From NCBI GenBank assembly GCA_041660065.1, contig JBAZXC010000005.1, forward strand, positions 292-64,291: a stretch of DNA of 64,000 nt. Reading direction: 5' to 3'. Both the position numbers and the translations under genes were made by a program. Numbering within the stretch: position 1 is the first letter of the stretch; each line of letters starts with the position of its first letter. The notes under the pieces are model-generated. The model ran no database searches and was not told where the DNA came from. It was given only the letters and a program-made list of their open reading frames with translations. Of the stretch, positions 3,539 to 62,830 are shown one piece after another. Source of the DNA: Parcubacteria group bacterium. GTDB taxonomy: Bacteria; Patescibacteriota; Minisyncoccia; Moranbacterales; GCA-2747515.

Positions 3539-4376
3539 AATCAACAAATGCCTTGTGAACAGATGACGCGTATGGGTGAAATTTTTTTTGTGCGTAATAA
3601 TTTTTTATTTTGCGAAGAAAGAAGTGGATATGAAACCATATCCTTGCAAGTCCGTGAGCATGCTTGTCAAAAAACAATAAACCGGAAAGCACGAGAAAAT
3701 ACGTCTTTATTTCCTTGTGGTTCTCGCTGACTTCATCATGAAATGCTTTGGCATGTGGCAGAAGACCGAGGGAGAATCCTTCTTTTTTTGCACGTAAACA
3801 AAAATCAGCGTCTTCATAATAGAGGAAAAAACGTTCATCAAATAGACCAATTTTCTTGTAAACGGAAGCATGTACTGTCATGACGCAGCCAGAAATGTAT
3901 TCTGAAGAAACGACTTTTTGCGTGAGATCTTTTATAGGCTCCGCGTGGGTGTTCTGACATGTAAAAAAATTGATTTTTCCACCAGAAAACCATTGTTTTT
4001 TTCTTGTTGTATCAAAGATCAAAGGAGAGGCGATTGCAACTATATTATCAGTCACAGCTGTGGTCAATAAAGAAGCACAATCTTTGGATAGGGTGGCATC
4101 AGGATTGCAATAGGTGATTGTTGTGGCATTTCGCTCCAAAGCATAGCGTGTGCCGATATTTGCCGCTGTGGCAAAGCCAACATTTTGCGTATTATAAATA
4201 TAAATAAGATTGGGATATTTGAGTTTGCAAAGCTCCAATGATTGATCCGATGATGCATTGTCAACAACAACAATCAGTGGATGGACGTGTTGTGACTGCA
4301 GGATACTATGAAGGCAACGAATGATCGAATCACCGCTATTATAATTCACGACGACAAAAAAATGTCTTTCATCCAT
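3522..4376 (-). CDS. family 2 glycosyltransferase
   Basis: 'FFVVVNYNSGD', 'VVVDNASSD' and 'NVGFATAANIG' GT2 signatures; ATG at 4376. Confidence 0.7.
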   Translation of the reverse strand: MDERHFFVVVNYNSGDSIIRCLHSILQSQHVHPLIVVVDNASSDQSLELCKLKYPNLIYIYNTQNVGFATAANIGTRYALERNATTITYCNPDATLSKDCASLLTTAVTDNIVAIASPLIFDTTRKKQWFSGGKINFFTCQNTHAEPIKDLTQKVVSSEYISGCVMTVHASVYKKIGLFDERFFLYYEDADFCLRAKKEGFSLGLLPHAKAFHDEVSENHKEIKTYFLVLSGLLFFDKHAHGLARIWFHIHFFLRKIKNYYAQKKFHPYASSVHKAFVDYESLT

Positions 4377-7077: not shown

Positions 7078-7413
7078 TTAAATGAGTTTTGCTTGAGAAA
7101 AAAGCGCTGAAAGTGTAGCGCAGGCTTCCCTATATGGTAACACTTTACCACGATTTGTATAGGAGATCACGATATCGTATCCGGGAGCAAGATTGAGAAG
7201 ATGTGTATGCAGTGCTGCATAAAGAACGCGCCTTTGTCTATTGCGTTTCACTGCGCTGGGGGAATATTTTTTCCCCACAACATATGCGATGTGTGAGTGT
7301 GGACTATTATTGGGTAAAAAAAATAGCAATGCACCACCAAAATAGTGGCGCTTGCCTTGTGAATATAGAGAAGAAAATCGATATGTGTGCAGTCGATGTG
7401 GTTTTGTAATCAT
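7078..7413 (-). CDS. rnpA: ribonuclease P protein component
   Basis: 'HRLHTYRF' and RNR-type basic motif 'VKRNRQRRVLYAAL'. Directly downstream of rpmH. ATG at 7413 chosen; a TTG at 7437 is also possible. Confidence 0.7.
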   Translation of the reverse strand: MITKPHRLHTYRFSSLYSQGKRHYFGGALLFFLPNNSPHSHIAYVVGKKYSPSAVKRNRQRRVLYAALHTHLLNLAPGYDIVISYTNRGKVLPYREACATLSALFSQAKLI

Positions 7414-7445
7414 AAACAAAAAAATAAAGACTTGCAACGAATCTG

Positions 7446-7580
7446 TTATACGGCAGCACGCACACGACCTTTTTGGCGTCGTCTCTTGAGAACAAGTTGT
7501 CCCGTGCGCGTTTGCATTCTTTTGAGAAATCCATGGACGGACTTTCGCTTTCCTTTTTTTGGTTGGTATGTTCTTTTCAT
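7446..7580 (-). CDS. rpmH: 50S ribosomal protein L34
   Basis: 44-aa translation [44 protein letters not shown] matches the L34 consensus. It is absent from the ORF track because it is shorter than 60 aa. Confidence 0.85.
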
Positions 7581-7639
7581 ATTATAATTATGTAACAATA
7601 ATCACTAGTAAATAGCTCAATTATCCTAACATGGCACGT

Positions 7640-7860
7640 GTTTAAAGTCAATAAATATCTTTGGGGCAGCGAGGGATGAATAAAAGTTATCCACAAGTTG
7701 TTCACAAACTGTGGATAAGTTGATATATTTTGTTTTATTGTGGATAAATGTTATAATTTTTCTATTGAAAATAGAATCAAGATATGCATGGCTGTGGACA
7801 TTTTGTGGATAACATAGTAATTCACCCGAAACGTGTGTTATTTAAAGGATTACTGGGGAT
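7640..7860. promoter_or_regulatory. oriC-type DnaA box cluster and dnaA promoter region
   Basis: Four perfect TTATCCACA boxes at 7687-7695 (+), 7710-7718 (-), 7739-7747 (-) and 7804-7812 (-), plus a near-match at 7794-7801. An AT-rich stretch lies between them, and the cluster sits between rpmH and dnaA. Confidence 0.7.
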
Positions 7861-7914
7861 AATTCTTTCATATTACGGATATATTAAGTGTAATTAGTGA
7901 ATTGAATTAAAAAA

Positions 7915-9342
7915 ATGGATACTATAGATCTGTGGAAATCAGTATTGGGAAGCATTGAATTATCAATTTCAAAGGCAAATTTTAGTACGTGGTTCAAAAA
8001 TACGAGAATTCTTTCTATAGAAAACAAGCATGTTATTGTTGGTGTGCCAAATGGATTTGCAAAAGAATGGTTGGAAAACAAATATCAGTCATATATTTTA
8101 CAAGCATTGCGTGTTGAAATGCCGGATGTTGTGAGTATGAGTTGTGCTGTGTATAATCCACAAAACATTGAACAAAACGTCTCTGTAAACAAAGAGCCTG
8201 AAAAACAAAAATTATCGGAAAAGTCTATTGGGGAAAAGAAGCGGGTATTTGAAGAAGAAAAAAAGCCCTATGTACAGCAAAAAACAGGCTTTTCCCAATC
8301 GCTTTTATCCGCAAATAACATTAGTCTCAATAGCCGTTACACATTTGATAATTTTATTGTCGGAGAACACAACGAGCTTGCAAAAGCGGCATGTCATGCT
8401 GTGTGTGAAAATTTGGGAAGAATTTATAATCCGCTCTTCATTTATGGTAAAGTTGGTTTAGGTAAGACGCATTTATTGCAAGCAATTGGGAATTATGTGC
8501 GATCGAGCGATGCAGCAAAAAAAATTGTTTATACAACATCTGAACGTTTTACAACGGAATTGGTTAATGCCATCAAAAATAATAAAGCGGATAAATTCAA
8601 GGAAGATTATCAACTTGTTGATTTGCTCATTATCGATGATGTGCAGTTTTTGGCAGGAAAAGAAAAAACACAGCAGGAATTCTTTCATATTTTTAATGTG
8701 CTCTACAATCTCAATAAGCAGATTGTAATTTCCAGTGATCGTCCTCCAAAATCAATTAGTACACTTGAGGAGCGATTGCGATCGCGGTTTGAGGGCGGTA
8801 TGATTGTGGATGTCAGTCAACCGGATTTGGAAACACGTATTGCAATTTTACGCACGAAAGCAATGGAAAAAGGATTTTATCTCAGTGACGATGTTTTGCG
8901 GTTTATGTCAGAAAATATCAAAAACAACGTGCGTGAGCTGGAGGGTGCATTGAATCGGGTAATCGCGATCTGTGATCTGCATAAGAAAGAGCCAACGCAA
9001 CAATTGGTGGAGCAGGCATTGGGGGAGATCATTCAAAGCAGCAAAAAGAAGTGTGTACAAAATAAAAATATCATTGATGTCATTTCTGAATTTTATGAAA
9101 TTGATAAGGAGGAACTGATCAAAAAAGGACGAAAGAAAGAAGTTGTGTATCCACGACAAGTGGCAATGTATCTTTTGCGAAAAGAATTAAACATGTCATA
9201 TCCGGGTATCGGAAAATATTTCAGCGGAAGGGACCACACAACTGCGCTTCATGCATATGAAAAGATCAATAGGGAAATTAAGGAAAATGATCGTTTGAGA
9301 GAAGAAATTGGGTTTCTGCGTGAGAAATTGTACTCCGTGTAA
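7915..9342 (+). CDS. dnaA: chromosomal replication initiator protein DnaA
   Basis: 475 aa with Walker A 'GKVGLGKTHL', AAA+ motifs and a C-terminal DNA-binding domain ('VAMYLLRKEL'). Confidence 0.95.
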   Translation: MDTIDLWKSVLGSIELSISKANFSTWFKNTRILSIENKHVIVGVPNGFAKEWLENKYQSYILQALRVEMPDVVSMSCAVYNPQNIEQNVSVNKEPEKQKLSEKSIGEKKRVFEEEKKPYVQQKTGFSQSLLSANNISLNSRYTFDNFIVGEHNELAKAACHAVCENLGRIYNPLFIYGKVGLGKTHLLQAIGNYVRSSDAAKKIVYTTSERFTTELVNAIKNNKADKFKEDYQLVDLLIIDDVQFLAGKEKTQQEFFHIFNVLYNLNKQIVISSDRPPKSISTLEERLRSRFEGGMIVDVSQPDLETRIAILRTKAMEKGFYLSDDVLRFMSENIKNNVRELEGALNRVIAICDLHKKEPTQQLVEQALGEIIQSSKKKCVQNKNIIDVISEFYEIDKEELIKKGRKKEVVYPRQVAMYLLRKELNMSYPGIGKYFSGRDHTTALHAYEKINREIKENDRLREEIGFLREKLYSV

Positions 9343-9390: not shown

Positions 9391-10533
9391 ATGAAAGCAA
9401 CATGTACATACGAAAACCTTAAAAGCGCTCTACATGCAACAGAGTTTGCTACGAGCAAGAGTGCCACATTATCCATATTAAATAACATCCTCATTGAAAC
9501 GGATGGTGCACAGTTGTGTTTCTCGGCGACAAATTTGGAAATTGGGATCATCAAAAGAATTCAAGCAAAAATTGATGCTCCGGGAAAAATTGTTGTTTCC
9601 GCCGGTTTGCTGGGGAGTTTTTTGACAGCGTTGCGTGGTACGGATCATATCACCATGAGTGTTGATGGGCAGATCTTGCTGTTGCAGAGCGGTGCGCACA
9701 AAGCGCGTATCAATGGGTATAATGTGGATGAATTTCCCATTATTCCACAAAGCAGTGCACAAAACATGGTAGAATTTTCTCTGATATATCTCAAAGAATG
9801 CATTGCAAAAGTTTTGCATTTTACATCAAAAAGTGAAACACGCATTGAACTGACAGGTGTGTTTATGTCTTTTGGTTCTGATGAGGTATGTAGTGTAGCG
9901 ACTGACAGTTTTCGTTTGGGAGAAGTCAAGATTCCGGTCAGTGAATTGGCAGTAAACATAAAAGAATATCATACTGTTACAGAAAACAATAAAAACATCA
10001 TCCTTCCACAACAGCTTTGTGCATATATCAATAAGCTTTCTGATGATCATGATATTGTACAATGCAACATTGAAGAAAATCATTTATTCTTTGCATGTGG
10101 TGATCTTTCCATTACTGCACGGTTGATTGATGGTTCTTATCCTGATTATAAACAAATTATTCCCAAAGATGCGTTAACACATGTCGTAATTAAAAAGGAT
10201 GCTCTCATGGAGGCGATGAAAATCACAACTGTTTTTACAGGGCGAGAAAGTGGTGAGATCCATTTTGACATTGATGGACAAATACTTAAAATTACGACAC
10301 GACAGCAGGACGTTGGGGAAAATACAACAGAGCTCCCTGTACTTACTGAGGGAGAGCCACAAAATATCGTGCTTAATCCACGATTTGTCATTGATGGTAT
10401 TGGACGCATTGATGAAGAGGATGTGCGTATTTCAATCAACGGTAATACGTCACCGGTGATGTTTCGTGGATATAAAAACGGAGAAGTAAGTGAACGATAT
10501 ACATATATCGTCATGCCTGTAAAAAGTGCGTAA
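9391..10533 (+). CDS. dnaN: DNA polymerase III beta subunit (sliding clamp)
   Basis: 380 aa immediately after dnaA, with three-domain beta-clamp length and organisation. Confidence 0.9.
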   Translation: MKATCTYENLKSALHATEFATSKSATLSILNNILIETDGAQLCFSATNLEIGIIKRIQAKIDAPGKIVVSAGLLGSFLTALRGTDHITMSVDGQILLLQSGAHKARINGYNVDEFPIIPQSSAQNMVEFSLIYLKECIAKVLHFTSKSETRIELTGVFMSFGSDEVCSVATDSFRLGEVKIPVSELAVNIKEYHTVTENNKNIILPQQLCAYINKLSDDHDIVQCNIEENHLFFACGDLSITARLIDGSYPDYKQIIPKDALTHVVIKKDALMEAMKITTVFTGRESGEIHFDIDGQILKITTRQQDVGENTTELPVLTEGEPQNIVLNPRFVIDGIGRIDEEDVRISINGNTSPVMFRGYKNGEVSERYTYIVMPVKSA

Positions 10534-10535
10534 AA

Positions 10536-10838
10536 ATGAAAGGGATCAAATCATACATTCAAAAAAAGAAAAAAAATGCGCAGGCAATCCGCAAAGAAAA
10601 TATTTCCGTCGATGATCAAACGATCATGCATCTTTTTTCACGTGCAGTACGAGAAGAATATGGCAGACAAGGTGAAAAAAATATTGTACCAAAATTATAT
10701 AAAAATGGACTGATTTTTATCAGTATTCATAACGCGATCTGGGCGCAGGAAATATGGTTGCGTCGGGATTTTTTTGTCGAAGCTCTTAACGAAAAAATCG
10801 GACGCAAGGTTGTGAGAGGAATAAAAATCGCCACATAA
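10536..10838 (+). CDS. DUF721/DciA-like protein (possible helicase-loading factor)
   Basis: Basic 100-aa protein translationally coupled to dnaN. Its position and size match the DUF721/DciA genes found next to dnaN in many bacteria. Family assignment from memory only. Confidence 0.4.
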   Translation: MKGIKSYIQKKKKNAQAIRKENISVDDQTIMHLFSRAVREEYGRQGEKNIVPKLYKNGLIFISIHNAIWAQEIWLRRDFFVEALNEKIGRKVVRGIKIAT

Positions 10839-25068: not shown

Positions 25069-26085
25069 TTAGCGTTTTAATTGGGCATAGCCATGATCGG
25101 TCACGATGCGTCCGCGCGGAGAACGTTCAAGAAAGCCTCTTTGCATGAGATATGGCTCATAAACATCCTCAATGGTTTGAACTTCCTCTGAAAGTGCATT
25201 GGCGATTGTCTGGATGCCAACGGGACCGCCGTTGAATTTGTCGATAATAAGTGTCAAAAACTCCCGATCAGTCGGCTCAAGACCATTGTCATCGATATCA
25301 AGCATCTCGAGCGCTTGTTGGGCGACATGGGCATTGATCACATCATGTTCATGCACTTCTGCCCAGTCGCGGGCACGCTTTAAGAGGCGATTGGCGATGC
25401 GCGGTGTCTGGCGTGCGGCACGCGCAAGACAGAGAGCGCCGGCATCATCGATCGCACATGTGAGAATCGATGCACTGCGTGCAATGATCCTCTCAATATC
25501 CTCTTGTTTATAGAATTCCAAGCGATGGATCACGCCAAAACGATCGCGAAGCGGTCCTGTGAGATTGCCCATGCGCGTTGTTGCACCAATGAGGGTGAAT
25601 TTTGGCAGATCGATCTGCAATGCCTGTGCACTGGGTCCTTTGCCTACGATGAGATCGAGTTTGTGATCTTCCATTGCCGGATAGAGCACCTCCTCAACTA
25701 CTTTGTTGAGGCGGTGGATCTCATCGATAAAAAGTACATCGCCATCTTGCATGTTGGTGAGAATCGATCCGAGATCGCCGACGCGTTCGATTGCCGGTCC
25801 GGATGTCGTTTTGATATTGACATTCATCTCGCGCGCAATGATGTTGGCAAGTGTCGTTTTGCCCAGCCCCGGCGGTCCGTAGAGGAGGATGTGTTCTAGC
25901 GGTTCTTTGCGCTTTTTTGCGGCGTCGAGGAAGATGCGGAGTTGTTTTTTGATCTTTTCTTGTCCGACGTATTCACTAAGTTTTTGTGGACGAAGTGTAT
26001 AATCAATGGTGAATTCACTCGGAATTGCCGGTTCTTGTGGTTGCGTGTCGCTCTCTGCGCTGTGATCATGCGTAATAAGTGTCAT
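25069..26085 (-). CDS. ruvB: Holliday junction branch migration ATPase RuvB
   Basis: '[14 protein letters not shown]', '[11 protein letters not shown]' and a RuvB C-terminal winged helix. Confidence 0.95.
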
Positions 26086-26147: not shown

Positions 26148-26176
26148 TTGACAGGATTTCAAAGGTATGCTAAGAT
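26148..26176 (+). promoter_or_regulatory. sigma70-type promoter (TTGACA-17-TAAGAT)
   Basis: TTGACA at 26148-26153, a 17-bp spacer, and TAAGAT at 26171-26176. Confidence 0.45.
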
Positions 26177-26182
26177 AGTAAG

Positions 26183-26456
26183 TCCTGTTAGGATGTGTTT
26201 AAAAATTGATGTTTTTGTATCTGTAGGCACAACTATGGGCTTTTCTATCTTTGAAGCTCATATCGGAAGATGTTCGTCCAGATCGGGTTCTTGTGGTTTC
26301 GGCTGCGGCTCTCCTCGATGCTTCTTCTCCCCGCATGCGTCATCGACCATGCGGGTATGCTGCCTACGGTTTCAACTAAGGAGGTAGCAACTGTCTACAG
26401 ATACAAAAACAGCAACAAACAGCAAATAAACCCCGCCACTTTGGCGGGGTTTTTTA
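26183..26456 (+). ncRNA. candidate structured small RNA or 5' leader of unknown class
   Basis: A roughly 275-nt transcript is predicted from the consensus promoter to the intrinsic terminator CCCCGCCActtTGGCGGGG+T6 at 26431-26455. It contains an 8-bp hairpin (CCCGCATG...CATGCGGG) and an AAGGAGGT element with no following start codon. No tmRNA, RNase P or SRP signature is recognisable. Confidence 0.3.
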
Positions 26457-33169: not shown

Positions 33170-33925
33170 TTAATATTCTTGGCCGATCGACCACATGGTT
33201 TCAAAAATACTTTTCAGACTGGCATGGATCTTTCGACTCTCAATGATCAGTGCGAATTTTTCTTCAAAGGATAAAATGCTTACTTTGTCACTGCCATAGA
33301 TCATGATCTCTATCTCAATATTGAAAATGTCAGTAGACAGGCATCGTGATTTTTGTAAGAATTCTGAATTTGTTTTATCAAATGGACTTAATTTTTCACT
33401 TTGTGGCAATAGTTTTCTTACAGAAATCCTTTTTTTAATCCTCTCGGGAATAAAATATTCAGAGAAAAAATCTTCGTCAAAATTAGACGTATACGCATCA
33501 TAATACATGACGCAAATTTCTTTTTTGGGATAGTTGAGTGCATCTTTCAAGACCTCCTTTATCCCAGCGGTTTCTTCAAAATAGCGAATGGTCGGCTTTT
33601 TGTCGATGAAATTGGCAAAGGAGAGAAGTTGGGGCATGAGATCGGAAATATGTTTTTTTCTTTCGTCCATCACGCGTTCCAGATTGCGAGGGTCTTCAGA
33701 AAAATAATGGATTTTGCCACCTTTTTTGATGGCACTCATAAGGCCTTTTTTCATCAGGTTTTCCAATGAGAGATAGACCGTGGTTCTCTTGATGTCTGAT
33801 TTGGTAGCGATCCTGCTCACCGAGGCCTCGCCCAACTCCAAAGCGGCCAAATAGATTTTGGCCTCTGTTTCAGTGAGTCCGGCGTCTGATAGTTGTTTGT
33901 AAAGCATAGATGTAAATAGTGTCAT
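33170..33925 (-). CDS. TrmB-family transcriptional regulator
   Basis: N-terminal HTH 'LTETEAKIYLAALELGEASVSRIATKSDIKRTTVYLSLENLMKKGL' plus a TrmB-type C-terminal domain. Start ambiguous (GTG 33940, ATG 33925 or ATG 33907). Confidence 0.65.
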   Translation of the reverse strand: MTLFTSMLYKQLSDAGLTETEAKIYLAALELGEASVSRIATKSDIKRTTVYLSLENLMKKGLMSAIKKGGKIHYFSEDPRNLERVMDERKKHISDLMPQLLSFANFIDKKPTIRYFEETAGIKEVLKDALNYPKKEICVMYYDAYTSNFDEDFFSEYFIPERIKKRISVRKLLPQSEKLSPFDKTNSEFLQKSRCLSTDIFNIEIEIMIYGSDKVSILSFEEKFALIIESRKIHASLKSIFETMWSIGQEY

Positions 33926-34139
33926 CGGAAATGACAACACATTTATTATATCATATATACAAAAAAAGTCAATAAATAAGGTATTTTTATGATATTCTAA
34001 ATTATAATTTTGTCACACCAGGCATTTATAATGACAAAAGTCAATTTTTATGTTATACTACACAGTCAAGTTAAGAAAGAGTTTTGAGACTTGAGGATCT
34101 TTAAAAACTGAATGAAAATAATTCCCAAGGAGGAATAAA

Positions 34140-41817: not shown

Positions 41818-41877
41818 AAAATGTAAAACAATTATTCACCTTTTTCTACATATTATAAAATTATCTGACAAATGTAC

Positions 41878-41972
41878 GTCTTTGCGAGGAGGAACGACGA
41901 AGCAATCTTAAATATTGAAAAAAATACAGTATATCCAAACAAGTTTGCTTCGTCGTTCCTCCTCGCAAAGAC
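41878..41972. repeat. 28-bp perfect inverted repeat with 39-nt spacer (large hairpin)
   Basis: GTCTTTGCGAGGAGGAACGACGAAGCAA at 41878-41905 pairs perfectly with TTGCTTCGTCGTTCCTCCTCGCAAAGAC at 41945-41972. Confidence 0.7.
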
Positions 41973-42135
41973 AAGAGTTTTAGAGATATTTTCTTGGGAA
42001 AAGGTGAATAGGGACAATGTAAAAAATTGCCAAAATATTCTTTGTGTGGCACTATAATGGAATAAAAGGCATATCACATGTGGTATTGCCGTTTGTTCTT
42101 TTATCAATACATGGAGATAAAAAGGAGAGGAGAAA

Positions 42136-43194: not shown

Positions 43195-43464
43195 TTATTT
43201 TTTCTTCATCGCAACAACTTTTTTGTTGAGGCGTGATTTTTTGCGTGCGGCGGTATTTTTTTTGATGACATTCTTTTGCACGGCTTTGTCGAGTGCTTTT
43301 TGTGAAAGTTTCAAATATGTGTCAACCTCCTTTGTGTTATTGGTTGCAATTGCTTTTTCGAGTTTTTTGATTGCTGTACGATATGCACCGCGGGTTTTGC
43401 GATTTGCCTCGGTTTTTTTTGCAGTGACTTTTACATACTTCTTTGCAGCATCGATGATTGGCAT
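43195..43464 (-). CDS. rpsT: 30S ribosomal protein S20
   Basis: 'MPIIDAAKKYVKVTAKKTEANRKTRGAYRTAIKK...' S20 consensus; internal ATG at 43464 used. Confidence 0.8.
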   Translation of the reverse strand: MPIIDAAKKYVKVTAKKTEANRKTRGAYRTAIKKLEKAIATNNTKEVDTYLKLSQKALDKAVQKNVIKKNTAARKKSRLNKKVVAMKKK

Positions 43465-43641
43465 AGTGTTATTGAGATAATTGAATTTAAATTCGTCCTG
43501 TCGCTCACGAGCGACTGGATACATCCTGCCACTTGCGAGTGACGGGATAAGCATTAGATACCGATCACATCCGCAAAACTGAGAAATTCACGAAAACGAT
43601 CGTTTCTTATTTTTAGCACAGAACTTTGATTTTGGCAAGAT

Positions 43642-43681
43642 TAGATTGGTAGACATTTAGACAGGTAGATTAGTAGACCAG
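43642..43681. repeat. array of five 8-bp-phased TAGAC/TAGAT pentamers (left member of an inverted array pair)
   Basis: Five consecutive 8-bp units: tagattgg, tagacatt, tagacagg, tagattag, tagaccag. Lies just upstream of the rpsT promoter (TTGCCA-17-TAAAAAT on the minus strand). Confidence 0.6.
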
Positions 43682-43751
43682 TGAAAGGGTGTATTGTAAA
43701 TATTTTTTTGCGTATATCCATAATGTAGTGGTACACTTGTGATAGAAAGCA

Positions 43752-43780
43752 TTGCCGTTTTAATGATAATTTTGTATACT
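43752..43780 (+). promoter_or_regulatory. putative ruvA promoter (TTGCCG-17-TATACT)
   Basis: -35 at 43752-43757, -10 at 43775-43780; this would place the right array in the 5' UTR. Confidence 0.35.
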
Positions 43781-43784
43781 TTTT

Positions 43785-43824
43785 GTCTACATTTCTACTA
43801 GTCTAAATGTCTAACAGTCTAAAA
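43785..43824. repeat. array of five 8-bp-phased GTCTA pentamers ending 1 nt before the ruvA ATG (right member, inverted relative to 43642..43681)
   Basis: Five consecutive 8-bp units: gtctacat, ttctacta, gtctaaat, gtctaaca, gtctaaaa, then the ATG at 43826. No Shine-Dalgarno sequence. Confidence 0.6.
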
Positions 43825-43825
43825 A

Positions 43826-44389
43826 ATGATCGGTTATCTCAAAGGTTCTATTATCGCCAAGACCAAAGATGCTATTATTGTGGATGTTCATGATGTGGGA
43901 TATGAGGTTTTTATGTCTGGTTTTGCTGTGGAAAAAGTTGATGGGGATGTATCTCTTCATATTCATACACATGTGCGCGAACAAGAAATTTCTCTCTATG
44001 GATTTTTGACAAAAGAGGAATTGCGGATGTTCGAGATGCTCATCAGCATTTCCGGTATCGGGCCAAAGGCGGCACTCAATATTCTTTCAATTGCCGACGT
44101 GCCGACATTGTCAACAGCGATCGCGCACAAAGACACAAGCATCCTCACAAGGGTATCCGGCATTGGCAAAAAAACAGCAGAAAAAGTCATCCTGGAACTT
44201 TCCGGAAAAGTTGTCGCACCAATCGATGCGGCAATCGGTAATGCGATGACACACGCTGATGCGATCGATGCATTACGCTCTCTCGGTTATAGCGCATCCG
44301 AAGCGCGCGATGCCTTGAGCAATGTGCCAAAGGACGTGAAAGATGTGGGCGAGTGTGTGCGATTGGCGCTTAAATATTTGGGCAAATAA
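43826..44389 (+). CDS. ruvA: Holliday junction DNA helicase RuvA
   Basis: 'MIGYLKGSI...DVGYEVFMS' and 'ISGIGPKAALNIL' HhH motifs. Confidence 0.9.
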   Translation: MIGYLKGSIIAKTKDAIIVDVHDVGYEVFMSGFAVEKVDGDVSLHIHTHVREQEISLYGFLTKEELRMFEMLISISGIGPKAALNILSIADVPTLSTAIAHKDTSILTRVSGIGKKTAEKVILELSGKVVAPIDAAIGNAMTHADAIDALRSLGYSASEARDALSNVPKDVKDVGECVRLALKYLGK

Positions 44390-49922: not shown

Positions 49923-50073
49923 GGCACGATCTCCTTAGTTGGTGGTTTGTTTGGCGCATCTTCATTGTGAAAGAACGATTGACAGTCAAGCATATGGCAC
50001 TATCTGCAATATGTCAATTAAAGTTCAACAAATGTTGACAATATATTGACAACAGTATAGGATGAGGATATAT

Positions 50074-50862
50074 ATGTCAGTCAATCTAACACTCAAAAAA
50101 TTGGGGCTTAATGAAAAAGAAGTGCGAGTATATCTCGCTTTGCTTCGGCGTGGAAAAACTAAACCTGCAGAATTGGCAAAACTGACCAAGCTCAACAGGG
50201 CAACGCTCTATCATATTGCCAAAGGCCTGGTTTCTTCAGGTATCATTGCCGAAGACTTGAGCGGTAAAACTTTGCAATATGTATCTTTGCCGATCAACGA
50301 TCTGAAAAATATTTTAGAATCTGACAAAAGGGCATTAAAAGAGAAAGAGGATTTGGTCAAGCGGGCAGTTGGTGAGCTTCGACTTATTAGTTCAGAAAAA
50401 TCATATCCCGTCCCCAAGATCAGATTTATAGAAGAGAAAGATCTGGAAAAGTTCTTGTTTGATAATTTGGTGAAGTGGCAAAAAAATGTCATTGCATCAG
50501 ACGGTTTTTGGTGGGGTTTTCAAGACCACACGTTTGTTGAAAATTATCCCGCTTGGATCGCGGAGAGTTGGAAAACAAAGGAAAGTCAGCATAAAAATTA
50601 TTTACCGCAAGTGTTTACAAATGATTCGGCTCCTGAGCGGAGATTAAAAGGGAAATACCAGCCAAAAAGACATGTCAAATTTTTGGCGGATACAAATTTT
50701 ACAGCAACCACGTGGGTGTGTGGAAATTATATTGTCATGATCCATACGCGCCACACCCCTTTTTATCTCATTGAAATTCATGATGAAATGATGGCGCTTA
50801 ATATGCGAGAAATATTTCGAAAGTTATGGGAAATTCCGACAAAAGAGGCGAATAAATTATAA
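50074..50862 (+). CDS. TrmB-family transcriptional regulator (paralog of 33170..33925)
   Basis: HTH 'LNEKEVRVYLALLRRGKTKPAELAKLTKLNRATLYHIAKGLVSSGI'; ATG 50074 has the SD AGGATGAGGA. Confidence 0.6.
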   Translation: MSVNLTLKKLGLNEKEVRVYLALLRRGKTKPAELAKLTKLNRATLYHIAKGLVSSGIIAEDLSGKTLQYVSLPINDLKNILESDKRALKEKEDLVKRAVGELRLISSEKSYPVPKIRFIEEKDLEKFLFDNLVKWQKNVIASDGFWWGFQDHTFVENYPAWIAESWKTKESQHKNYLPQVFTNDSAPERRLKGKYQPKRHVKFLADTNFTATTWVCGNYIVMIHTRHTPFYLIEIHDEMMALNMREIFRKLWEIPTKEANKL

Positions 50863-58981: not shown

Positions 58982-59143
58982 ATGAAAATATATTTTGCGG
59001 GGTCAATTCGTGGCGGGAGAGGTGATAAAGAATTGTATTTGCAGCTCATTCGGTATATCAGTAAATATTTGGGCAAGAGCAGGTTTGTAACCTGCTCCTT
59101 TCATTTTTTTTGTGCTACAATATTTTTAGTTGAGATCATTTAA
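58982..59143 (+). pseudogene. remnant of a nucleoside 2-deoxyribosyltransferase/DNPH1(Rcl)-like gene, truncated after ~31 codons by repeat insertion
   Basis: Opening 'MKIYFAGSIRGGRGDKELYLQLIRYISKYLG' matches the conserved N-terminus of the DNPH1/Rcl family. The frame then reads through the terminator hairpin (59077-59098) and stops at 59143. Confidence 0.35.
59077..59110 (+). terminator. intrinsic terminator, hairpin-family member
   Basis: AGAGCAGGTT-tgt-AACCTGCTCC followed by TTTCATTTTTTTT. Confidence 0.5.
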
Positions 59144-62424: not shown

Positions 62425-62721
62425 CTAGTGTATAAGTCCCTTCACGCGAGTCGCTTCTTGTTCCAGAGCGGGAGACTCTTCATATTCGCCGTGATGGCGG
62501 GTATCGTCACCGTAGGTGTATTTTTTGTGGTCAATGTGAAAACTGATATTGAGATCGCGTCCGGTGAGTGTCACATACATGTGGAATCGTGGAAAACCAC
62601 TACTGCCCATGATACGGACAAAGCTCATCTCGTTGTCTGCTGTATAGTGTTGAAATGTATATCCGGCACGTCGCAATGCCACGGCAGGATTTGTGGAAAT
62701 GTTTGGAATTGTGAAACGCAT
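62425..62721 (-). CDS. hypothetical 98-aa protein (start abuts the phased pentamer array, no SD)
   Basis: Protein-like composition (MRFTIPNIS...). The overlapping plus-strand ORF 62266..62745 runs through the tRNA and is low-complexity, so the minus-strand ORF is preferred. Confidence 0.35.
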   Translation of the reverse strand: MRFTIPNISTNPAVALRRAGYTFQHYTADNEMSFVRIMGSSGFPRFHMYVTLTGRDLNISFHIDHKKYTYGDDTRHHGEYEESPALEQEATRVKGLIH

Positions 62722-62726
62722 AAAAT

Positions 62727-62766
62727 TAGTATGTTAGTATATTAGACTTGTAGTATTGTAGTATAT
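62727..62766. repeat. array of five 8-bp-phased TAGTA/TAGAC pentamers (left member, locus 2)
   Basis: Five consecutive 8-bp units: tagtatgt, tagtatat, tagacttg, tagtattg, tagtatat. On the minus strand the array ends 5 nt before the ATG of the 98-aa gene. Confidence 0.6.
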
Positions 62767-62790
62767 GAATTTTTAAATTTATTTTTTTTA

Positions 62791-62830
62791 GTCTACTTTT
62801 CTAAAAGTCTATTCGTCTACCCATCTAGCT
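62791..62830. repeat. array of five 8-bp-phased GTCTA/TTCTA pentamers (right member, locus 2), overlapping the cca stop codon
   Basis: Five consecutive 8-bp units: gtctactt, ttctaaaa, gtctattc, gtctaccc, atctagct. Separated from the left array by a 24-bp A/T spacer. Confidence 0.6.

Follow-up and report, generated by a model that had tools for sequence, protein, structure and literature searches.

Two pairs of inverted TAG-core octamer arrays in a Parcubacteria group genome as possible cargo-less arms of an intervening-sequence-like cassette family

A 64-kb stretch of DNA from a Parcubacteria group bacterium (contig JBAZXC010000005.1, positions 292 to 64,291; called the window below) contains two intergenic loci that each carry a pair of inverted arrays, or arms, of five 8-bp units with a TAG core. 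Locus 1 lies between the divergent genes rpsT (leftward) and ruvA (rightward). Locus 2 lies between cca, the gene for the CCA-adding enzyme, and a 98-codon open reading frame (ORF), ORF98, which a tRNA-Leu gene adjoins on the side away from the arrays. The 187-aa RuvA matches, at 100% identity, a protein of an NCBI metagenome-assembled genome named 'Parcubacteria group bacterium', and the nearest named relatives by RuvA are Moraniibacteriota, at about 60% identity. The features of the two loci are:

43195 to 43464, minus strand: rpsT (S20), with a conserved leader of about 140 nt (43465-43608) and the promoter TTGCCA/AAAAAT (43638-43609).
43642 to 43681, plus strand: locus 1 left arm, five 8-bp TAGAY-NNN units, starting 3 bp outside the rpsT -35.
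43682 to 43784, no strand: locus 1 spacer, 103 bp, containing the conserved ruvA promoter (TTGCCG 43752-43757, TATACT 43775-43780).
43720 to 43693, minus strand: candidate leftward promoter within the locus 1 spacer, TGGATA-16-TACAAT, a consensus match only; its transcript would begin just before the left arm.
43785 to 43824, minus strand: locus 1 right arm, five 8-bp units, TAGAM on the minus strand (GTCTA on the plus strand).
43826 to 44389, plus strand: ruvA, with RuvA_N, HHH_5 and RuvA_C domains; the product has 187 aa and starts MIGYLKG.
62425 to 62721, minus strand: ORF98, a conserved 98-aa Parcubacteria/Moranbacteria protein, syntenic with cca, with a KA1-like alpha/beta fold.
62727 to 62766, plus strand: locus 2 ORF98-side arm, five 8-bp units, four TAGTA and one TAGAC.
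62767 to 62787, no strand: locus 2 spacer, 21 bp, A/T only.
62788 to 62827, minus strand: locus 2 cca-side arm, five TAGAN-NNN units on the minus strand.

The left arm of locus 1 consists, in order, of the units TAGATTGG, TAGACATT, TAGACAGG, TAGATTAG and TAGACCAG. The right arm reads GTCTACAT, TTCTACTA, GTCTAAAT, GTCTAACA and GTCTAAAA, followed by a single A and the ruvA ATG at 43826. The consensus unit of the window arms is TAGACNNN, and the arm that leads into a start codon (the exit arm) is read as (NNNGUCUA)n. Four bases (43781-43784) separate the ruvA -10 from the right arm and 1 nt separates the arm from the ATG; the arm is essentially the entire ruvA 5' untranslated region (UTR). The ORF98-side arm of locus 2, read on the minus strand, gives a CUA-sense leader whose end is 5 nt from the ORF98 ATG, and the cca stop codon is the first TAG of the cca-side arm (62825-62827). 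The ruvA and ORF98 starts each lie 5 nt after the last CTA, which is 1 nt and 5 nt, respectively, past the arm end as drawn. Both loci fit a description as paired inverted arms of tandem 7-8-bp units. The order upstream stop, entry arm, exit arm and ATG is found at locus 2; locus 1 has no upstream co-directional gene.

An earlier note on this DNA had described the locus 1 arrays, and its coordinates, its five 8-bp units and the inverted pairing all hold, as does its report that the architecture is repeated at a second locus (62727-62827). The note had also proposed promoters for both genes. Both are present and kept in relatives; the ruvA promoter is TTGCCG-17-TATACT on the plus strand (43752-43780), and the rpsT promoter on the minus strand (43638-43609) reads TTGCCA-18-AAAAAT and not TTGCCA-17-TAAAAAT as first given.

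The array scan suggested in the note was run on the window as five consecutive TAG-N5 units and gave 4 matches, namely both arms of both loci, versus 0 in 100 dinucleotide shuffles. No array of at least five units beyond these four arms appeared when all trinucleotide cores at periods of 5-12 were scanned in the window, and a position weight matrix built from the 20 units found no third locus there. The TAG core has 0 mismatches at 60 positions across the 20 units, compared with 43% departures from consensus at positions 4-8 (P ~2e-15 for uniform decay). TAGAC is about 2.7-fold rarer than expected elsewhere in the window (24 and 27 occurrences versus about 68 expected per strand by composition arithmetic), and TAG and CTA stand at 0.42 and 0.59 of expectation in the other upstream regions. 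The arrays are real, unique within the window and constrained in their core. This core is all that the two loci have in common; the copies are not near-identical, and no target-site duplication (TSD) is present at either locus. An Rfam scan returned tRNA-Leu as the sole match above the gathering threshold and nothing with E < 3 across 43400-43900.

Several familiar repeat classes were considered and rejected. The short unit, the absence of spacers and the location of oriC away from the arrays (7687-7812) spoke against CRISPR arrays, iterons and DnaA boxes. A DNA-uptake sequence is incompatible with the under-representation of TAGAC, and phase-variable slippage with the heterogeneity of the units. 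A miniature inverted-repeat transposable element (MITE) or REPIN fits poorly, given the missing TSD, the homology of the locus 1 spacer to relatives that have no arms and the restriction of shared sequence to the core. A further proposal, that the arms are decaying 8-bp minisatellites without present function that were expanded by slippage in permissive intergenic DNA, would account for the absence of arrays from close relatives and for the many perfect octamer tandem repeats among the matches listed in the genome scan described below, and PMC4679880 describes long 5-11-nt simple sequence repeats as sporadic and lineage-specific. This explanation is very improbable given the contrast between core and remaining positions, the exactly five units in each of the four arms, the inverted pairing at both loci and a unit type that is common to the loci of one genome.

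Strong pairing is predicted for the whole of locus 1 (dG = -60.9, z = -6.9). Its arms form 38-bp inverted repeats that are 82% complementary, and the complementarity is equal in several registers, which indicates that it mirrors the unit consensus and is not hairpin-specific covariation. The locus 2 arms are 73% complementary with weak predicted pairing (z -1.4 to -1.8). Folding of the ruvA 5' UTR, another check named in the earlier note, shows that the right arm is unstructured as RNA on its own (dG = -4.9, z = +0.3), and the ORF98-side arm is likewise unstructured (dG = 0, z positive). No terminator-like site was detected in 43400-43900 or at the locus 2 arms. A bidirectional intrinsic terminator was rejected because there is no U tract and no GC stem and locus 1 lies between divergent genes. 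Binding of RuvA to an extruded cruciform was also rejected; extrusion is unlikely with a loop of 106 nt, and locus 2 has no connection with ruv genes. The rpsT leader of about 140 nt (43465-43608, minus strand) is conserved in relatives (TGAGAAAT...CGATCGTT...TTTTTAGCA) and contains G+C-rich inverted repeats with no Rfam match; it is a possible site of S20 autoregulation.

The anatomy of locus 1, an inverted repeat on each side of a promoter between divergent genes, also raises the idea of an inverton, in which the 38-bp repeats would recombine, flip the 103-bp spacer and turn the TTGCCG-17-TATACT promoter from ruvA to rpsT. The 82% complementarity of the arms is compatible with this idea. No recombinase gene lies nearby, the locus 2 spacer is only 21 bp, tandem-repeat arms are atypical of recombinase sites and no flipped orientation was seen among the assemblies examined, making an inverton the least probable of the explanations considered here and an extremely unlikely one.

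An SD-like (Shine-Dalgarno-like) motif of even 4 nt between -20 and -4 precedes only 12 of the 63 window genes. This distribution suggests that initiation in this genome is largely SD-independent and partly leaderless, so a ruvA gene without an SD is normal here. The gene is also SD-less in relatives that have no arrays. The proposal in the earlier note that the element substitutes for an SD is not supported by these observations. Leaders in the window are short and A/U-rich, with -10 boxes (gaTATAaT) frequently 15-35 nt ahead of the ATG, and the stop codons used are TAA (43), TGA (13) and TAG (7).

The note had further linked the arrays to a recombination and repair regulon, in part through a partial copy upstream of ruvB. 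Locus 2 lies between cca and ORF98, and ruvB, ruvC, polA and recQ are all in the window without an array, which leaves such a regulon unsupported. The partial copy was not confirmed; the region upstream of ruvB (25069-26085) shows no more than CTACGTAGTATATTGTAG, in which the two TAGs are spaced by 10 bp. The same four genes led to the rejection of a LexA/SOS or repair regulon.

The same loci were compared in relatives, which carry L numbers here. The rpsT-ruvA synteny is kept in L255, L121/L122, L123 and L124 (RuvA identity of 87, 85, 73 and 72%), and both promoters align across all of them. The left arm is missing from L255, L121 and L123, and L124 has only the remnant TAGATTCTTAGACATAGAGG. 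At the position of the right arm, L255 retains three in-phase CTA units and the other relatives have scattered CTAs. No array of four or more units was found in about 53 kb of ruvA-locus relatives. An operator would be expected to be conserved together with its promoter; instead, the arms are missing or decayed in L255, L121, L123 and L124 despite the kept promoters.

ORF98 belongs to a family of 97-108-aa proteins, for which 495 matches were found in Parcubacteria and Moranbacteria, in every case with the gene downstream of cca; PDB sequences searched with an ORF98 profile gave nothing useful. In the relatives with 91% and 86% identity the cca-ORF98 spacer has a TAG-rich arm past the cca stop and a CTA-rich arm ahead of the ATG, with irregular or 7-bp spacing. 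The 77% relative (L252) has only a CTAC-rich arm with a period of about 7, and more distant relatives have no arms in this spacer. The unit type is common to the loci within a genome and differs among genomes at the orthologous locus, with TAGAC at period 8 in the window and period 7 in L251 and L252. On these comparisons the arms are old at these positions and fast-evolving, with a period that changes among genomes, which is a misfit with a conserved gene-specific operator. Their pattern of presence and absence resembles that of a decaying dispersed repeat, unlike that of a conserved operator. The concerted change of unit type among the loci of one genome, coupled with strict conservation of TAGAC, implies a trans-acting reader or gene conversion. 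In L253, from a relative with a 1.18-Mb contig, a 140-aa Y1_Tnp gene (10387-10809; IS200/IS605 or RAYT-like) with flanking hairpins lies directly downstream of ORF98, and an IS1595 transposase is found near it.

L252 also carries, between nrdA and nrdB, a gene for a 110-aa protein of PF05635 (23S-rRNA intervening-sequence protein, S23p/23S_rRNA_IVP, also annotated as 'four helix bundle protein'). About 17 TAG-core units of period 7 lie upstream of this gene and about 11 CTAC-core units lie downstream, the last of which ends 5 nt before the nrdB ATG. The nrdA-nrdB gaps of two other relatives measure 25 and 121 bp and contain no repeats, which identifies the L252 cassette as an insertion. An 18-nt identity (ACTACTAGCTACACGCTA) links the exit arm of the cassette to the ORF98 leader of L252, which is the orthologue of the window locus 2 arm. 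The window loci, by comparison, share just the unit type (TAGAC, period 8).

The L252 PF05635 protein was used to search all collected DNA (about 1.3 Mb). A TAG arm and a CTA arm directly flank PF05635 genes in L052 (two genes), L056, L058, L007 and L183, and in a weaker form in L021 and L196; the flanked cases are nearly all of the PF05635-like ORFs in that DNA. The L058 arms are true inverted repeats over about 27 nt. Because these loci had been chosen for their repeats, an independent sample was taken from plasmids, consisting of ten PF05635 genes (L256-L265) that were found by tblastn and not chosen on repeats. The plasmid genes sit within operons, for example cas6/cas4 and cas10/cmr3, typically in the layout stop, 5' arm, gene, 3' arm and ATG, which is clearest in L258, L261 and L264. 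Their arms are tandem 7-8-nt repeats in inverted orientation. A duplex between the 5' and 3' flanks has z <= -2.6 in 7 of the 10, and the best self-period is 7 or 8 on both sides in 9 of the 10, the exception being the upstream flank of L257. PF05635 proteins and their alignment, searched against viral contigs, gave no useful loci. No description of cassette-style arms around PF05635 genes outside rRNA was found in the searchable literature.

Two larger collections were scanned for the window architecture, one genome per GTDB species with a pattern of five TAGA-N4 units, and metagenomes with three TAGA units, 8-38 nt and three TCTA units. Both scans are fixed to a TAGA core and an 8-bp phase; their counts are lower bounds and give no measure of TAGA relative to other cores. 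Among the genome matches listed, many are plain octamer tandem repeats, chiefly from Bacteroidota and Chloroflexota, and window-like paired inverted arms occur in the Candidate Phyla Radiation (CPR) genomes L065 (Peribacteria), L085 (Peregrinibacteria) and L106. The metagenome scan gave at least 120 matches, many with 4-6 degenerate units per arm, and these also include (TAGA)n microsatellites and TCTAGA palindromes. Paired degenerate arms are present in AT-rich, Bacteroidota-like and high-GC contigs, several of which hold two elements, sometimes a few kb apart. The earlier note had called the class novel to this genome; comparable paired TAG/CTA arms instead occur across many phyla. A pattern scan of viral contigs gave four matches, just one of them similar.

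The placement of these arrays relative to codons depends on the strand. An upstream stop codon is abutted or overlapped by 24 of 37 TAG-sense arrays and by 2 of 23 CTA-sense arrays (P = 1.5e-5), and in TAG-sense arrays at gene ends the stop is the first, second or third TAG. The reverse bias is seen 4-12 nt ahead of an ATG, where 7 of 15 CTA-sense arrays and 1 of 20 TAG-sense arrays are found (P = 0.011). Locus 2 is a composite of both placement rules.

TAGA arrays, paired or single, were also seen directly 3' of tRNA genes (L106 at 3556-3638, L149, L202, L222 and L038). The one in L106 is a near-perfect hairpin (dG about -46, z = -6) that is followed by U6, the only such tail seen, and is terminator-like. 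Two contigs of one metagenome, L164 (3578-3627) and L150 (2222-2386), contain perfect tandem TAGACGTC repeats that amount to successive copies of the MetJ met-box consensus AGACGTCT.

The strand-specific placement bears on a reading in which an RNA-binding protein, either S1/Csp-like or a ring protein of the kind that TRAP or HutP forms on NAG repeats, would occupy multiple sites along (NNNGUCUA)5 in the 5' UTR. Binding would control the SD-independent initiation of ruvA and ORF98, and the TAG-sense arm would pair as an anti-leader. CTA-rich leaders recur ahead of ruvA and ORF98 in relatives with a variable phase, the leaders are unstructured, and 5 nt lie between the last CTA and the ATG, which in several cases keeps the phase of the CTA repeat. 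TAACTGA heptamers share both the placement and the proposed mechanism (PMC4679880). The left arm of locus 1, however, lies upstream of the rpsT promoter and would be transcribed only from the candidate internal promoter. Repeat-free, SD-less and unstructured leaders are the norm here, CTA is depleted in the other leaders (to 0.59 of expectation, as above) and there is no candidate binding protein. These points make a dedicated RNA platform distinctly unlikely.

Omega heptads are operator arrays of ribbon-helix-helix (RHH) proteins with a 7-bp period. A comparable reading of the window arms is an operator array for a small, oligomerising RHH-type double-stranded DNA-binding protein in the style of MetJ, ParG or omega. 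One dimer would occupy each TAGAC box, the 8-bp spacing would bring adjacent dimers into contact and the protein would spiral along 40 bp. Occupancy of the right arm would then obstruct RNA polymerase over +1 to +40 of ruvA, the left arm would touch the rpsT -35 and the two arms may bridge to loop the promoters. Locus 1 does present fixed-period short boxes with variable spacers that overlap a promoter, as RHH operators do. The strict 8-bp phase, the invariant 4-5-bp core, the variable AT-rich spacers and the five boxes in all four arms fit this reading, and the arms are inverted regardless of the intervening sequence. For the locus 1 left arm, which no conserved transcript covers, a sequence reader is needed to account for the kept core. 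Known systems provide precedents. ParG recognises degenerate ACTC boxes with invariant 4-bp AT-rich spacers in direct or inverted orientation, eight of which lie downstream of the -10 in its OF operator (PMC3413123); the first base of the right arm is likewise 5 nt past TATACT. MetJ binds tandem 8-bp AGACGTCT boxes, the junctions of which read TAGAC (PMC3413123). The paired tandem octamers of Geobacter have been proposed as sites for global regulators (PMC2700814).

Operator binding by an RHH protein remains the live rival among the alternatives but is itself on the unlikely side. ORFs of at least 90 aa in the window were compared with Pfam and intergenic ORFs of at least 28 aa were inspected by eye; no RHH, MetJ, ParG, CopG or Omega protein and no other small DNA-binding candidate was found among the window ORFs, only two TrmB-family regulators. 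ORF98, beside locus 2, has the KA1-like fold and not an RHH fold. The arrays are lost or decayed at ruvA in relatives with 85-87% RuvA identity and kept promoters. At the orthologous cca-ORF98 locus the period drops from 8 to 7, which a fixed protein lattice would not readily allow. Strand-specific placement with respect to stop and start codons also counts against an operator, and the association with PF05635 cassettes is left unexplained. The earlier note had offered a DNA operator or an mRNA leader element as its two interpretations. The operator stands as a rival, and the leader is retained only in the weaker form of an unstructured SD-less leader. Nothing supports the PUF- or TALE-like readers that it had also mentioned.

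The window arrays are most likely, though still tentatively, the cargo-less paired arms of a dispersed, intergenic, IVS-like (intervening-sequence-like) inverted-repeat cassette family. The chain that leads from locus 2 to the orthologous ORF98 leader of L252 and on to the paralogous cassette arm of L252, together with the common architecture, places this interpretation ahead of the others. The window spacers (103 bp and 21 bp) contain no PF05635 gene, so the window elements can only be cargo-less derivatives. Each arm in such a family would be a short tandem array of a genome-specific 7-8-bp unit, and fuller members would hold a PF05635 gene between the arms in the order upstream stop, TAG-sense arm, gene, CTA-sense arm and next ATG. 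With a period of 7 or 8, which three does not divide, TAG falls in every reading frame; the entry arm would halt any ribosome running in, whatever its frame. Such a stop is realised at locus 2, where cca terminates on the first TAG. The exit arm would provide an unstructured SD-less leader that now serves ruvA. Since this arm is a G-poor direct repeat with no self-fold, it suits the SD-independent initiation of most genes here. Such properties would let tight intergenic spacers accommodate the arms. Co-transcribed arms may pair into a long imperfect stem to be processed like the rRNA IVS that RNase III excises, and transposition or gene conversion may spread the family. The locus 1 element would have enclosed or brought the ruvA promoter before the lineages split, with the arms since decayed in relatives. 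With the ruvA promoter inside the locus 1 element, the ruvA transcript takes in the right arm alone.

Several observations weigh against a cassette origin. The 64-kb window contains no PF05635 gene and no transposase. The locus 1 spacer with its ruvA promoter is homologous to relatives that have no arms, and insertion as a simple unit therefore requires that the promoter was enclosed or brought early and that the arms decayed later. At locus 1 no ORF extends into the arms, and a transcript that spans both probably never forms. The retention of 10 of 10 TAGs there is explained neither by stop function nor by pairing and calls for some sequence reader or for a selected master copy that frequently converts the others. 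The poor pairing of the locus 2 arms and the register-independent complementarity at locus 1, given above, argue in the same direction. Many of the plasmid PF05635 arms have no TAG core and only some have one, which indicates that TAG is not universal to the cassette family.

By analogy with TRAP and HutP, the arms could be cis sites of the cassette's own PF05635 protein, with one 7-8-nt unit per subunit, a more speculative extension that is improbable as it stands. A five-unit arm would wrap one S23p/Avd-like homopentamer of nucleic-acid-binding four-helix bundles. The gene-plus-arms module would seed orphan arms in the leaders and promoters of ruvA, rpsT and ORF98 to give a genome-specific transcriptional or post-transcriptional regulon. 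If true, this would be the first function for PF05635 proteins outside diversity-generating retroelements, it would explain the concerted change of unit and it offers a concrete candidate for the binder of the repeats.

The cassette interpretation makes the arrays weaker as a ruvA regulator and more interesting as a class, a widespread cassette-and-arm system. It suggests that the very common PF05635 genes, of uncharacterised function, move as plug-in cassettes whose arms are neutral to their neighbours in any frame. In the SD-less, tightly packed genomes of the CPR, orphan arms that become leaders or promoter flanks would be a source of cheap regulatory novelty. The interpretation would also bring together the Geobacter paired octamers, the TAACTGA repeats, cyanobacterial heptamer arrays and rRNA intervening sequences.

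Other features of the window were recorded in passing. The region 7438-7914 is a probable oriC; it contains four perfect DnaA boxes (TTATCCACA) at 7687-7812, with rpmH (7446-7598, minus strand) and rnpA (7078-7437, minus strand) on one side of the boxes and dnaA (7915-9342), followed by dnaN and a DciA-like gene, on the other. Another long inverted repeat, in the holA-PMI intergenic region (41858-41992), has 52-nt arms that are 81% complementary, a 31-nt loop and no short tandem units. The 424-bp gap upstream of ruvB contains a candidate small RNA (26148-26456, plus strand), which is predicted from a TTGACA-17-TAAGAT promoter-like site and an intrinsic terminator (CCCCGCCACTTTGGCGGGGTTTTTT) about 280 nt on; no convincing ORF and no Rfam match were found in 26148-26456. 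The two TrmB-family winged-helix regulators are encoded at 33170-33940 and 50062-50862, and unusually many isolated TAGAY/RTCTA words occur at 33-35 kb around the first of them. A short ORF at 58982-59143 that starts MKIYFAGSIRGGRGDKELY and then becomes degenerate is probably a pseudogene; its start resembles the N-terminus of nucleoside 2-deoxyribosyltransferase-like proteins.

No match to the window repeat strings was found in the searchable literature, and the known systems that come closest each share some of their properties. REP, BIME and REPIN elements (repetitive extragenic palindromes and their composites) and bacterial MITEs are dispersed intergenic families of hairpin-capable inverted repeats that are genome-specific, patchy and often located past stop codons. 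The window elements differ in having no TSD, copies that are not near-identical and arms made of tandem octamers, with only two elements per 64 kb. A Y1 transposase is found only in a relative, with ordinary IS200-type hairpins.

RHH operator and centromere arrays (ParG OF/parH, MetJ met-boxes) resemble the window arms in their short core with a variable AT-rich spacer, their 7-8-bp period, their 2 to more than 10 boxes and their ability to follow a -10. The earlier note had considered an 8-bp phase foreign to known operators and iterons. The ParG and MetJ boxes show that it is a known operator geometry (PMC3413123), and the Geobacter octamers likewise contradict that claim (PMC2700814). The window arrays differ from RHH arrays in that they are not kept with a regulated gene, their period varies among close relatives and their placement is strand-specific.

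In Geobacter metallireducens, sites of four tandem GTTGCTYN octanucleotides form 24 pairs on opposite strands at a variable distance, and there are two further classes, TCTCCGTS[Y] x3 and MTYCTGA x5, which include eight pairs of five-heptanucleotide sites (PMC2700814). These sites are species-specific, and IHF/HU-type global regulators have been proposed only (PMC2700814). The likeness extends to 3-5 tandem 7-9-nt units per site, inner units that are better kept and tens of intergenic or intra-operon positions. The cores differ, the first class has no stop-codon core and no PF05635 link has been reported for them.

TAACTGA heptamers in Beggiatoaceae, Cyanobacteria and Bacteroidetes lie ahead of SD-less starts and overlap upstream stops (PMC4679880). 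They place stops in three frames and are missing from close relatives, and S1, Csp and CsrA-like proteins have been proposed as binders (PMC4679880). They share with the window arms short, stop-containing tandem units whose period is not a multiple of 3, which abut an SD-less start and overlap stop codons. In contrast, they are mostly single, perfect arrays with the stop-codon (forward) sense beside the start, whereas the start-side arm in the window has the CUA sense, its units are 43% off consensus outside the core and the arms form inverted pairs.

In rRNA IVS such as those of Coxiella and Leptospira, terminal inverted repeats form a stem that is excised by RNase III, and the loop holds an S23p ORF (PMC4990558). 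S23p is a homopentamer of four-helix bundles, and IVS are regarded as selfish elements (PMC4990558); 23S_rRNA_IVP ORFs are present in rRNA insertions of the CPR (PMC11270868). The window elements differ from IVS in their location in protein-gene spacers and not in rRNA helices, in having no ORF, in arms of tandem 8-bp repeats compared with a unique 28-bp stem and in the locus 1 arms, which are probably not co-transcribed. The two have in common terminal inverted repeats around a possible PF05635 gene, and the L252 cassette shares arm sequence with the locus 2 orthologue.

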